Origin: a virus
Taxonomy: Duplodnaviria > Heunggongvirae > Uroviricota > Caudoviricetes
IMG/VR virus record: IMGVR_UViG_651053023_000001
Location: 39,131 to 103,130 of that record
Length of the DNA: 64,000 nt
Reading direction: 5' to 3' (one strand)
Position numbers: made by a program. Position 1 is the first letter of the stretch. Each line of letters opens with the position of its first letter. Below are positions 27,001-30,000 of this stretch, in pieces.

Positions 27001-30000
27001 CAGTGTGGTTGTATTTATGGACCGCAGCGAAAGGTGGCCTGGAGAATCCTTGATGCCCAATACTTCGGAGTGGCACAACGACGCCGACGCGTGTTTGTTG
27101 TCGCAAGTGCTCGAACAGACCTCGATCCCGCAACGGTACTTTTTGAGTTCGAAGGCGTGCGCCGGAATATTGCGCCGAGCAGAGGCGAGGGGAAGGAAAC
27201 TACCAGATATACTTCAAACATCGCTATCAGATCTTGCGATGATACAAACATAGTTGCCATGGCACATGGGCAAGGAGGGGCTGAGATAAAAACCGATAAT
27301 TCGGCACCAACTTTGACATGTAACCATGAAGCACCAATTGTATTGCTCGTCGACGGTAGAATGCGCCGTCTTATCCCTGTCGAATGTGAAAGGCTGCAAG
27401 GTTTTCCTGATGGACATACATTGATCCCTACGGAAAAGCGTAAAAAAGTTTCTTCAGATGAACTGGCATACCTTCGCAAAAACTATCCTGATTTGAGCGA
27501 AGAAGAGGCCGCGATGCTTGCAGCTGACGGACCGCGTTACAAAGCGATCGGCAATAGTATGGCGATACCAGTAATGCGCTGGATTGGCGATCGGATTGCC
27601 AAGGCTGCATGTCGGCAGAAGGAAGGGAGTGAAACAAAAGAGCGAAAAGTTAAACCAGCGGCAGAATTCGAACGGTCCATATTCAAATGGGCTGGTGGAA
27701 AATTTGGTGTTCTGGAACAAATCTTTCGCTATTTGCCAGAAGGGAAGCGCCTGATTGAGCCTTTCGTTGGTGGCGGAGCTGTCTTCATGAATGCCGGATA
27801 CCAGGAAAATCTGCTAAATGATGTGAATGCTGACCTGATTAACTTTTACAAGACTCTGCAACGCGAGGCGCATTCACTTATCACTCTGGCACATCGTTTC
27901 TTCCAGGACTACAACACGCAGGAAGGATACCTGGCAGTACGGAATGCGTTTAACAAACAAGTCTATGATGATTTACATCGCGCAGCGGCGTTTTTGTTCC
28001 TGAACCGACATTGTTTTAACGGATTGACGCGTTACAACCAAGCCGGTGAGTTCAATGTCGGTTATGGGAAGTATAAAACTCCGTATTTCCCATTGCAGGA
28101 GATGGAAGCCTTCCTTGGTGCGGAAGGGCGTTCTGAGTTTGTATGTGGTGATTTTGCTGCGGTGATTGAAGCTGCCGGAGAAGGAGATGTCATCTTTTGC
28201 GATCCGCCGTATGAACCGCTCCCAAATACAGAGGGATTTACGAACTATTCCGGTCATGACTTTAAGTTTGAAGAGCAAAAACGCCTGGCGTCTCTGTTGA
28301 CGGATGCTCATCGCCGAGGTGCAAAGGTTCTCATTACTAACAGTGGCGCGCCAAACATCAGAGAACTTTATCAGGACAGTGGCTTCAGAGTGGAACCTCT
28401 TTTTGCCAGACGTTCTGTGTCTTGTAAGGGGGACACTCGAGGTGTTGCTCATGACGTTATGGCAATATTGCTCTAATAAATTTATTAGTGTAATATCGCC
28501 TCAATGAATCGTGATTTATAGAGCGATTTAGCTGTTAGCCGCGACAGGCGCGGCGGCAAGTATGGCGGGGTAGTGACTCCTTCCCCCTCATGACGCCGAG
28601 TTGCCAGGTTGACCATACGCCTAAGTGGCAACACCGAAGTGCGTTACGAGCTTCCAGTTTGCCCATCTTCGGGTGGGCGTTTTTTTCAGGGTTTTCGTCA
28701 TGGTTAGCGACTTTGCGGCGGTTTAGAAACTGACCATTAAAGTAAATGCAAACGATGATCTGATGATGGTAGCGGCCTAAGAAGCCAGACGCCACGGGGT
28801 ATGAGTCGTCCCCCGTCAAAAAATCGACCGCAGAGTGTCCCCGTCTGTGTATTAGGGAACGGGGAGGCACAACAGGTAAGGGCGCTGGTGTGATTAACCA
28901 GATGAACGAGAAGGGGCCATCTGTTGGTCAGCGTCCTTTCCTGTTGCGTCTTCTTTTCAGCGTAACAGCGGTGCTTAACAGCACTTTGGGTACAGTTCCA
29001 CGAATTTACGGGTATATCCCGTCATGCTGAAAGCGCTAATCACGCTGGAAGCCAGGGTTATGCATCCCCTGTTACCGAATTGCAGCCAGGGCGCGGTGCG
29101 CCGAAAAGCATACGGAGGTGGAAGCCCTCGCCGGAGACGTACCCGGCAAGTGATGGTGTAGCTCAGCGGTTAGAGCGGTTGACTGTTAATCAACGGGTCG
29201 ATGGTTCAAATCCATCCACCATCGCCAATGCCGGTTTAGCTCAGTTGGTAGAGCGCCTGCCTTGTAAGCAGGATGTCAGCGGTTCGAGTCCGTTAATCGG
29301 CACCAGCACAACAGGTAAGGGTATTTTGCGACGTCGGAGATCGCCGAGCTTGGCAGAGGGTTCGAATCCCTACGAAGTACCCTTACCGTTGTGATGAAGT
29401 GCAGCTCTTTGAAGCAACCAGAAGATAAGCATCTGGCTTCACAACATAAACCGCAGGAACGACCAATAAACGGTAGTCCGTATGGAGAACACCCCGTTGA
29501 GGAAGAGGCCTGGCCGGAACCGTAACCGGCACTACAACGTTGAGAACACTGGCGTAACGGGGTCATATCCCAATCTACGAATAAATGTTGCGTTGCAGCG
29601 TGACAACCAGTGTTCTCAACATTGTGGTGAATGCACAGGCTGATGTGCCGCAACTACAGTAGTGCGCGCTTTGCGGGGCTTGCTACAACCCTGTGTCGGA
29701 GTTCAGCACCGACCATCACAGTTTGATTCTCTGGCATGAGCATAACGCTGAAATAAGTCCAGTCTGGTGCGGCCTGATCACCCGCCGTTAGCTCCACGAA
29801 ACGGAGCACGTAACAGGTAAGAGCATTCTCCTGTAACGGGTTCATATCCCAATCTACAGGTCCACCAGGAATGCTCTTTCCGTTGCGGTGAATGCGGCTA
29901 AGCGCACGCGGGGAAATGGTTATATCTGTCCATTATTTCTCCTTATTTCCCCGTCCACGGTGGATAACCAGCTAAAGGACACCGGGAAGCACCCGGCACC

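Follow-up and report, generated by a model that had tools for sequence, protein, structure and literature searches.

A family of long hairpins in the ban operon leader of phage P1 and in the leaders of other enterobacterial phages

The ban operon of phage P1 begins with an untranslated leader of about 1.5 kb in which two transfer RNA (tRNA) genes, tRNA-Asn and tRNA-Thr, are surrounded by long hairpins, and this locus raises the question of what the hairpins are and what they do. The stretch studied here (IMG/VR record IMGVR_UViG_651053023_000001, positions 39,131 to 103,130; hereafter the window, 64,000 nucleotides (nt) in full) represents phage P1: its positions 28700-30100 were 99.6% identical to NC_005856, whose record coordinates are converted to window positions by subtracting 40196. 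In the annotation of NC_005856 the hairpin region lies between dmt and tciA, inside the ban operon, which is controlled by C1 through the P1ban/P2ban promoters and has as its last gene ban, encoding a DnaB-like helicase; after upl come tciA, tciB, tciC, tRNA-Ile and ban. The original prediction, made from the sequence alone, had proposed degenerate tRNA genes, processing substrates, small structured RNAs or a small mobile repeat. Our results revealed a family of hairpins and showed its structure, strand, conservation, position rules, variable interiors and the non-coding character of the region; the stem is probably the selected part.

Four strong hairpins, A, B, C and D, and a degenerate fifth, A', were found in the leader (Table 1); B, C and D are the three structures with loops of about 50 nt that had been predicted. 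When A to D were each compared with 200 dinucleotide shuffles, no shuffle was as stable as the native sequence, and the reverse strand folded more weakly for each of the four (z of -2.8 to -5.6). No T run lies 3' of any of the hairpins. Hairpin A has a stem of about 22 base pairs (bp), in which the A after AAC is paired, and an interior with the GGTGTGATTAA motif; in D6 one of its C-G pairs is replaced by T-A, a compensatory change. The stem of hairpin B consists of 5 bp, a bulged A and about 15 bp. Hairpin B includes GGGTTCGAATCCC at 29358-29370 and contains the canonical T-arm that had been predicted there, AGGG-TTCGAAT-CCCT within 29357-29371, 1 nt from the 3' stem strand. The arms of hairpin C (29530-29552 and 29607-29629) are 23 nt long and 91% complementary, and include the perfect 14-mer gttgagaacactgg/ccagtgttctcaac, the inverted repeat already noticed; the stem sequence (ACAACGTTGAGAACACTGG) is unlike that of the other hairpins and is fully compensated. 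Hairpin D has a bulged A and a T.T mismatch positioned as in hairpin A. The loops of C and D were expected to share a core, and they do: 25 nt (29554-29578 and 29833-29857) are common to both with 96% identity. The interior of C also includes a second small hairpin. The recurring motif, placed originally at 28868, 29306 and 29812, was found as ACAACAGGTAAGRG at 28869, 29308 and 29810 with 0, 0 and 2 mismatches, its first copy being the 5' arm of hairpin A, and no further + strand match with two or fewer mismatches exists in the window. A' carries ACGGGTATATCCCGT (29008-29022) in its interior, which is similar to the 25-nt core, and can only weakly be counted as a member. With covariance model R1, which uses trimmed arms, only D, A and B were found in the window, and the members are confined to 28.8-29.9 kb; R1 misses C and shortens long members because its match length has a ceiling of about 75 nt. 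Separately, a stretch of 12 nt in the 3' arm of A (28935-28946) and one in the 5' arm of B (29309-29320) show 92% complementarity, and an alternative long-range stem around A', tRNA-Asn and tRNA-Thr, as in rRNA processing stems, is therefore possible.

A scan of viral contigs with the arm pattern yielded at least 120 loci, in which about 100 distinct elements, between 46 and 146 nt in length, were recognised by a simple stem finder. Their stems are 19-23 bp long, about two helical turns, and follow one plan. After xxAAC and an optional bulged A come 12-17 more pairs and a variable interior of 15-90 nt; the complementary arm then leads to GTTxx, often with GRTGAA(G)TGC behind it. The bulged base, where present (38 of 77 distinct elements), is always A. 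There are at least seven stem sequence classes, each internally fully complementary, and the AAC/GTT base itself varies with compensation (ATC/GAT, AAT/ATT). For covariation, 44 distinct arm pairs were used, from which A-type elements were set aside because their register is offset by one. Pairing in this sample, which a finder had selected with a minimum of 14 Watson-Crick pairs in 18 and with AAC/GTT anchors, amounted to 89.6% of stem cells, against 36-55% when the partners were slid. Changes on both sides were found in 17 of the 21 stem pairs, and the covariation score was 0.542 vs 0.217 in shuffles, with none of 500 shuffles reaching the observed value. Compensatory change in relatives, on which the original prediction had staked its case, is thus present, and the diversity of pair types at homologous positions is its only independent evidence. 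The strand is also clear. Stem positions other than Watson-Crick pairs, read on the + strand, were G.U in 172 cases and A.C in 72 with a finder that counted Watson-Crick pairs only, and the covariance model scored the + strand above the - strand for every element matched on both (for example 43 vs 16 bits and 51 vs 14 bits). Among the initial proposals, small structured RNAs or processing substrates are the best supported by these covarying pairs, the G.U excess, the + strand scores and the leader position. An unanchored hairpin search (14 of 15 pairs, G.U allowed) was too permissive, giving mostly chance matches in coding DNA, and was used only for base-triplet variants.

Variability was found in the interiors. 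The slot just 3' of the tRNA-Thr CCA end held five unrelated interiors across plasmids. Hairpin D of D6 has an entirely different 77-nt interior between kept arms, with a tRNA-Ser between C and D. In Ro157c2YLVW, hairpin B has a different, shorter interior, exactly the GGGTTCATATCCC part of the loop of hairpin D is deleted with the stem kept, and a tRNA-Tyr is inserted between tRNA-Asn and tRNA-Thr. Interior families are also reused in unrelated phages: the interior of P1 hairpin B recurs in locus L162, the core shared by C and D occurs in L129, and the GTAGAGTTCGACTCTCTAC interior is common to lambdoid and P1-like loci. Locus L004 shows an arm-to-arm deletion that has brought the 3' arm of B up against the flank downstream of C. 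Among the P1-like and SSU5-like loci (L001-L129) the tRNA set varies as well, comprising Asn or Arg(TCT), with or without Tyr, Thr, with or without Ser(TGA), and Ile(CAT); the region behaves as a tRNA cassette region.

The positions of the elements follow rules. In a survey of upstream context, almost every element started 2-3 nt after the end of a preceding helix, namely the tRNA-Thr CCA end, a small acceptor-like hairpin whose loop reads ACGAAAC, the final hairpin of a module resembling the tag part of transfer-messenger RNA (tmRNA), or GC-rich hairpins with loops of 7-11 nt. A hairpin stood 3' of tRNA-Thr in 106 of 106 loci with enough downstream sequence, a sample that is biased because the loci were fetched by arm pattern. 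Without exception the elements are in untranslated leaders and share their strand with the tRNA genes, the tag modules and the leader genes nearby.

Members of the family were found in many unrelated phages. In SSU5-like phage-plasmids of Escherichia and Klebsiella they flank tRNA-Asn, Tyr, Thr and Ser. Lambdoid prophage L154, reached through a short chromosomal BLAST match, has two members in an untranslated late leader of about 1.1 kb between the Q antiterminator and holin genes; the first stands directly after tR', and the members are interleaved with homologues of P1 28690-28860 and of the interior of D6 hairpin D. HK633 has the same layout, with one element on an ATC/GAT base instead of AAC/GTT. 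In siphovirus Sa179lw the family belongs to a stand-alone RNA unit, with promoter-like sequence upstream and a terminator downstream, that combines a tag module with a long hairpin and an STnc100-like segment. Kuttervirus genomes also carry members. Furthermore, the Qin prophage of E. coli K-12 has one downstream of cspB (NC_000913 1641167-1641222, minus strand; 26.6 bits) with an AAT/ATT base followed by GGTGAAGTGCAG, and no convincing member was found in the DLP12 prophage of K-12. The Qin element lies between cspB and essQ (L246 10168-10223), where a strong Shine-Dalgarno sequence and ATG open an 11-codon frame, MKQWLAYLAKS*, that runs into the 5' arm. When the commonest arm pattern was searched in 185,579 species with one genome each, the only true match was an Escherichia contig with the P1-like two-element arrangement; the other 23 matches were scattered over unrelated phyla at about the number expected by chance. 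The family is therefore one of enterobacterial phages and is not a dispersed repeat. The P1 segment itself occurred in 678 of 5,426 complete E. coli genomes, almost always on plasmids (660 of 718 places), and the one chromosomal match examined lay in a prophage leader.

Table 1. Features of the ban operon leader, in window coordinates
Feature	Position	Strand	Basis and remarks
Hairpin A	28865..28951	+	inverted repeat; -46.1 kcal/mol, z -5.94; covariance model R1 17.9 bits
A', degenerate member	28962..29085	+	inverted repeat: GTAACAGCGG ... CCCCTGTTAC then CGAATTGCAG
Hairpin B	29307..29393	+	fold z -5.67; covariance model R1 17.8 bits
Hairpin C	29530..29629	+	inverted repeat; -49.2 kcal/mol, z -7.65
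Hairpin D	29810..29886	+	fold z -5.93; covariance model R1 28.1 bits, E 1e-5
P1ban/P2ban promoters and C1 operator (Oban, formerly Op72)	28455..28500	+	NC_005856 annotation; drive the ban operon including all leader elements
DicF-like region	28595..28696	+	P1 annotation and terminator scan
tmRNA-like messenger (tag) module	28690..28863	+	sub-threshold Rfam; 3' end directly against hairpin A
tRNA-Asn (GTT)	29152..29227	+	ARAGORN and Rfam, 74.5 bits
tRNA-Thr (TGT)	29230..29305	+	ARAGORN and Rfam, 72.9 bits; CCA end 2 nt upstream of hairpin B
Small hairpin GCCGG-AACCGTAA-CCGGC then ACT	29513..29533	+	read from sequence; directly 5' of hairpin C
Acceptor-like hairpin GCTCC-ACGAAAC-GGAGC then AC	29780..29809	+	read from sequence; CCCGCCGTTA precedes; directly 5' of hairpin D
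STnc100-like structured segment	29884..30003	+	Rfam RF02076 below threshold; between hairpin D and tciA
plp	29276-29653	-	NC_005856 annotation; judged not a gene
upl	29654-29845	-	NC_005856 annotation; judged not a gene

In the leader of P1 the hairpins stand among other modules. The first is a DicF homologue. A scan of 28350-30900 for intrinsic terminators gave a single candidate on the + strand, the stem at 28660-28679 with its T run, and this site forms the end of the DicF-like region. ARAGORN and Rfam called tRNA-Asn, tRNA-Thr and a Met/Ile(CAT) tRNA as the only tRNAs of the window. The STnc100 match scored 33.4 bits against a gathering score of 47 and covers only positions 31-147 of the 206 in the model; its CCGGG/CCCGG hairpin reads CCTGG/CCAGG in D6, which is compensatory, and an STnc100-like module also lies 3' of a long hairpin in phage Sa179lw. 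The small hairpin upstream of C is similar to the 3' end of tRNA-Thr (CCGTAACCGGCACT vs CCGTTAATCGGCACCA) and may be a relic of it, as read from the sequence. The acceptor-like hairpin upstream of D resembles the 3' end of tmRNA (CCCGCCAGCUCCACCA), although a BLAST comparison of E. coli ssrA with the loci gave no significant match. In the stem of this hairpin (29791-29807) A3-U70 stands instead of G3.U70, and the end is closed by a loop. Such ACGAAAC hairpins precede long hairpins in 11 distinct elements, with a compensated variant, GCCAC/GTGGC, in L208. The stretch 29780-29809 also reads as a tmRNA 3'-end-like relic (CCCGCCGTTAGCTCCACGA) whose acceptor strand pairs with GGAGC across the ACGAAAC loop.

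What could such stems do? We tentatively favour, with a little under even confidence, the view that they are cis-acting RNA 'punctuation' stems between leader modules and probably substrates of ribonuclease III (RNase III). The modules so separated would be the DicF-like small RNA (sRNA), the tmRNA-like tag module, tRNA-Asn, tRNA-Thr and the STnc100-like segment, followed by tciABC, tRNA-Ile and ban. Host RNase III would cut both strands of the duplex; the cut would separate the neighbouring modules and set or protect their ends, and it would free the interior as a small capped hairpin RNA, tRNA-like in some members. A double cut of this kind could explain the conserved tRNA-like folds among some interiors, and the interior might be exchangeable cargo or a decaying tRNA core. 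Since the arms are alike between copies, they may also serve as joints for the swap or deletion of modules by recombination. Cleavage, the identity of the nuclease and the benefit to the phage are what we infer here. RNase III accommodates a duplex of about 22 bp and often makes a double cut (PMC6212723). As would be expected of its sites, the stems measure 19-23 bp with one bulge or mismatch, and their places in the ban operon are between units of one transcript (tag module, tRNAs, STnc100-like segment, tciA).

Several points weigh against this view. The stem base AAC/GTT, the bulged A and the downstream GRTGAAKTGC are conserved in sequence, and a sequence-specific partner may exist, because RNase III reads structure and would not need such conservation. 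A stable stem right after a tRNA 3' end could hinder exonucleolytic trimming and not help it. Any benefit must be conditional, since knock-down of trnT, plp, upl and tciA by CRISPR interference caused no defect in the lytic growth of P1 (PMC10695390). Furthermore, the percentage of pairing and the three invariant pairs given above are partly circular, because the finder demanded both pairing and anchors.

The early intercistronic R sites of phage T7 and the stems flanking 16S and 23S rRNA are duplexes of about two turns, often with a bulge or an internal loop, that RNase III cuts between transcript units. The phage hairpins are like them in setting a two-turn duplex between units of a polycistronic transcript and in conserving structure over sequence. 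However, the phage family has a conserved stem base and 3' flank sequence and a structured insert of 15-90 nt, and for its stems we only infer the cleavage. The species 1 RNA of phage T4 (rnaC), considered here together with rnaD, is a small stable RNA beside phage tRNA genes and co-oriented with them. It has a canonical T-arm (CCGGGUUCGAAUCCCGG) by its closing helix, while long hairpins replace the D and anticodon arms, and it was reportedly cut by RNase III in vitro in work of the 1970s. The T4 RNAs differ in that there is no sequence relation, and R1 was not significant at rnaC or rnaD. They also differ in being present as one copy with no repeated family and in having a short closing helix, compared with a duplex of about 21 bp on an AAC/GTT base. 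tRNA-like folds mark transcript cuts in mitochondrial tRNA punctuation, in plant mitochondrial t-elements and at the 3' end of MALAT1 (mascRNA). The subset of phage elements with T-arms or near-cloverleaf cores is similar to these, whereas most phage members have no tRNA-like core, their long paired leader and trailer would make a poor RNase P substrate, and the known examples are eukaryotic or organellar.

Another explanation is that the interiors are the functional product. The hairpin would then be the precursor or clamped form of a small RNA resembling tRNA or the tRNA-like domain (TLD) of tmRNA, and the stem would only present or stabilise it. Such an RNA could, for instance, divert tRNA-binding enzymes, anticodon nucleases or SmpB as a decoy, or be the tRNA-like partner of the tag module. 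We regard this as unlikely, though not implausible. A canonical T-arm (stem of at least 4 bp, TTCRANN loop) was present in 15 of 123 distinct elements, against 0.31 expected in shuffled interiors, and the 15 comprise five different sequences with compensated stems. In two Kuttervirus-type members several small hairpins and a perfect T-arm form a near-cloverleaf closed by an 18-bp stem, and the T-arm of hairpin B, so close to the 3' stem strand, has the topology of a tRNA. The conservation and reuse of interior families in unrelated phages points the same way, as does T4 rnaC, a stable RNA of like build in a tRNA cluster. A TLD-only RNA of mycobacteriophage DS6A, proposed to titrate SmpB, provides a precedent (PMC4131195). 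On the other hand, 108 of the 123 elements have no canonical T-arm, and in P1 none was found in A, C and D, whose loops read TTCATAT or GTCATAT. Some interiors measure only about 15-25 nt, the T-arm-like core of D is the part deleted in Ro157c2YLVW, and no encoded CCA follows the presumed acceptor strand. ARAGORN and Rfam called no element a tRNA or tmRNA, and at A, B, C and D gave no such call even at E up to 10, by which tRNA genes were rejected for these hairpins. The tRNA-like features are therefore real for a subset only, as most members have no T-arm and the stem can persist after the core has gone. Of the idea of degenerate tRNAs, the T-arms and the Kuttervirus near-cloverleafs bear out a part; the lack of any tRNA call and the replaceable interiors do not fit it.

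The tag module next to hairpin A leads to a further proposal. Its frame at 28748-28780 reads GCA AAC GAT GAT CTG ATG ATG GTA GCG GCC TAA (ANDDLMMVAA*), has no start codon and is preceded by UAAAU. The Rfam models tmRNA_permuted and beta_tmRNA align exactly the tag stretch, at 24-28 bits against a gathering score of 47. By BLAST the unit was found in 636 phage records of very different kinds, and in viral contigs a tag frame could be read in 121 distinct units, every one of them with exactly 10 codons and TAA. Their tag peptides fall into 17 variants, nearly all AN[DE]xxx[LM][AMV][AV]A, several with synonymous codon variants. Downstream of the stop codon are a hairpin and an H-type pseudoknot; the pseudoknot was 100% paired, with 4 of 4 pairs changed on both sides. 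These features are like those of tmRNA (ssrA, including two-piece permuted forms): a 10-codon frame starting GCA AAC GA, with a resume codon and without a start codon, U-A-R at -5 to -3, a tag with a C-terminus of the degradation type (a hydrophobic residue, A, V or A, and A before TAA), and a pseudoknot thereafter. In contrast to tmRNA, the module was not seen to have a tRNA-like domain bearing G3.U70 and a free CCA, and the Rfam scores stay below threshold; ARAGORN found no tmRNA at the module. The likeness rests on features and sub-threshold scores and not on sequence homology, because the BLAST of ssrA was non-significant. The module shows two defining features of tmRNA and lacks one, and we describe a tmRNA resemblance and do not class it as tmRNA. 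In a survey of tmRNA the phages with ssrA were mycobacteriophages and Bacillus phage G only (PMC4131195), and no description of the tag module of enterobacterial phages was found in the literature searched.

It might be supposed that the hairpins and their neighbours form a modular phage system acting on ribosome rescue, the long stems being processing joints of a new permuted or multi-piece tmRNA, a proposal to which we give little credence. T-arm hairpins and ACGAAAC acceptor-like hairpins, cut out at the long stems, would supply a tRNA-like domain to the tag module with its phage-specific tag of 10 residues; the result could be a split tmRNA made from pieces of one leader, or decoys for SmpB or for tRNA-directed host defences. 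As an observation on its own, about 190 nt downstream of the tag frame two Kuttervirus loci (L210, minus strand, 1894-1927; L157, 1136-1169) have a perfect T-arm, a 7-nt acceptor strand, one nt and CCA. The T-stem is compensated between the phages (GGAGG/CCTCC vs GAAGG/CCTTC), and no 5' acceptor strand for this piece was found within -800 to +400 nt.

It is also doubtful that the elements act during transcription, the structure blocking Rho loading or modifying RNA polymerase in the manner of put or boxA-type sites, with read-through to tciABC and ban as the result. The leader is untranslated over about 1.5 kb and has a strong terminator at 28660-28686, and the first element of the lambdoid leader stands directly after tR'. 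However, the P1 elements lie downstream of the terminator, not upstream, and Q already antiterminates lambdoid late operons. The 3' arms of the commonest stem class (TGCTCTTA/TGCTCTTTCC) are presumably close to the boxA consensus. The boxA-like string is buried in duplex and absent from classes such as ACCGCCCATCCTGTTAC and TTCATAATGTTGC. As a general explanation boxA was dropped because other stem classes are without TGCTCTTA. Intrinsic terminators were rejected as well, since no T run follows the hairpins and the sole + strand site is the one in the DicF-like region.

An action at the DNA level, as recombination sites or miniature mobile cassettes comparable to integron attC sites or miniature inverted-repeat transposable elements (MITEs), appears improbable. 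attC sites are palindromes of 57-141 bp whose symmetry is imperfect; their ends are conserved as AAC...GTT, one arm has an extrahelical base, and the centre varies. The phage elements have the same ends (nearly all read xxAAC...GTTxx), and their centres and the cargo between sites vary likewise; half of the distinct elements have one bulged base, placed on the 5' arm. Modules come and go like cassettes, as seen in the presence or absence of tRNA-Tyr, Ser and Arg, in five interiors in one slot and in the deletion in L004. The box consensus, central spacer, integrase and bottom-strand bias of attC were sought and none was found. The boxes read, for example, GCACAAC/GTTGTGA or ACGTAAC/GTTGCGG and not R''=RYYYAAC, R'=GTTRRRY, and AAC/GTT varies with compensation. 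The stem is continuous except for one bulged A and has no unpaired central spacer, and the wobble pairs favour the transcribed, top strand (172 vs 72) and not the bottom strand. No integron integrase was present in the annotated neighbourhoods of P1, D6, Ro157c2YLVW, L004 and L005; the SSU5-like L006 and L008 have a generic site-specific integrase about 1.3 kb away. MITEs were rejected because flanks such as cagc|...|gatg and gcac|...|ggtg carry no direct repeats and no dispersed copies exist. There are no target-site duplications, no copies elsewhere in the 64 kb of P1 and, apart from one true contig, essentially none outside phage leaders in the 185,579 species genomes, and the small mobile repeat of the original prediction was abandoned on these grounds.

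Slightly less probable still is a reading of the elements as pseudo-tRNA genes in decay and repeat debris, now without function. The apparent relics of tRNA and tmRNA 3' ends at 29513-29533 and 29780-29809 would suit this, as would interiors ranging from near-cloverleaf to nothing and a region dispensable for lytic growth. Compensation of 17 of 21 pairs across stem classes, however, indicates selection for pairing, members are kept in unrelated phage groups, and orientation and spacing rules are strict.

Finally, that Plp and Upl are proteins coded on the minus strand and the inverted repeats incidental is very improbable: the frames are open over 125 and 63 codons and annotated in NC_005856, but the start codon of plp is TTG, and the frame lies over part of tRNA-Thr on the opposite strand. 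Its translation is cysteine-rich and matched no Pfam family, and Upl gave only a sub-threshold match to CdiA_helical (E 0.021, 15.1 bits vs a cut-off of 27). Collinearity with P1 across plp and upl was seen in 25 of the 120 loci listed, the rest having gained, lost or exchanged sequence. Of 46 substitutions in the frame of plp, 19/14/13 fell at codon positions 1/2/3, so there is no third-position excess, and the NCBI pipeline places no coding sequence here in nearly all RefSeq P1-like plasmids. Both annotations are probably artefacts over structured RNA. The expectation that no convincing open reading frame covers 29306..30036 needs amending in that annotated genes do cover it on the minus strand; neither behaves as a gene, and the hairpins are not displaced by a clear protein-coding gene spanning the region.

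The punctuation stems favoured here are of a known kind, to which structured processing elements and RNAs of tRNA clusters (T4 species 1, for example) belong. The hairpin family, its grammar, its spread over unrelated phages and its link with the tag module are absent from Rfam 15 and were not found in the literature searched. At gathering or relaxed thresholds Rfam 15 gave no family over the hairpins, the only matches being chance-level ones to microRNA precursors. Literature searches on the tRNAs of the ban operon, plp/upl, phage tmRNA and the motif strings gave no description of the hairpin family, and a preprint on RNA-seq of P1vir does not treat the region. One layout, a long stem, a variable module and a long stem, links the P1 ban leader, the SSU5-like tRNA region, lambdoid late leaders, a siphovirus RNA gene, Kuttervirus and a K-12 prophage, which suggests that phages assemble and trade non-coding 'moron' modules in a shared manner. 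Lambdoid late leaders are the site of Shiga toxin genes, tRNAs and several virulence-linked sRNAs. The Qin copy makes the processing hypothesis testable in E. coli K-12, and the family may help to explain the T4 RNAs of species 1 and 2. The tag module, if functional, would raise a new question on the use or subversion of trans-translation by phages.

Other structured sequences were observed in the window. Between tRNA-Ile and ban (30838-30981) a long-range inverted repeat, CACATGCGTCG...CGATTCGGTGTG, occurs in many P1-like loci with a variable centre. The C4 antisense RNA, its a1/b1 targets (immI region) and a sok-type antitoxin RNA were matched at 7568-7620, 7689-7774 and 11232-11406, as expected for P1. 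Two identical matches to the ALIL pseudoknot, of 119 bits each, lie 3.5 kb apart on the + strand (43957-44073 and 47523-47639), as would be expected if an insertion sequence that has a frameshift signal were present twice.

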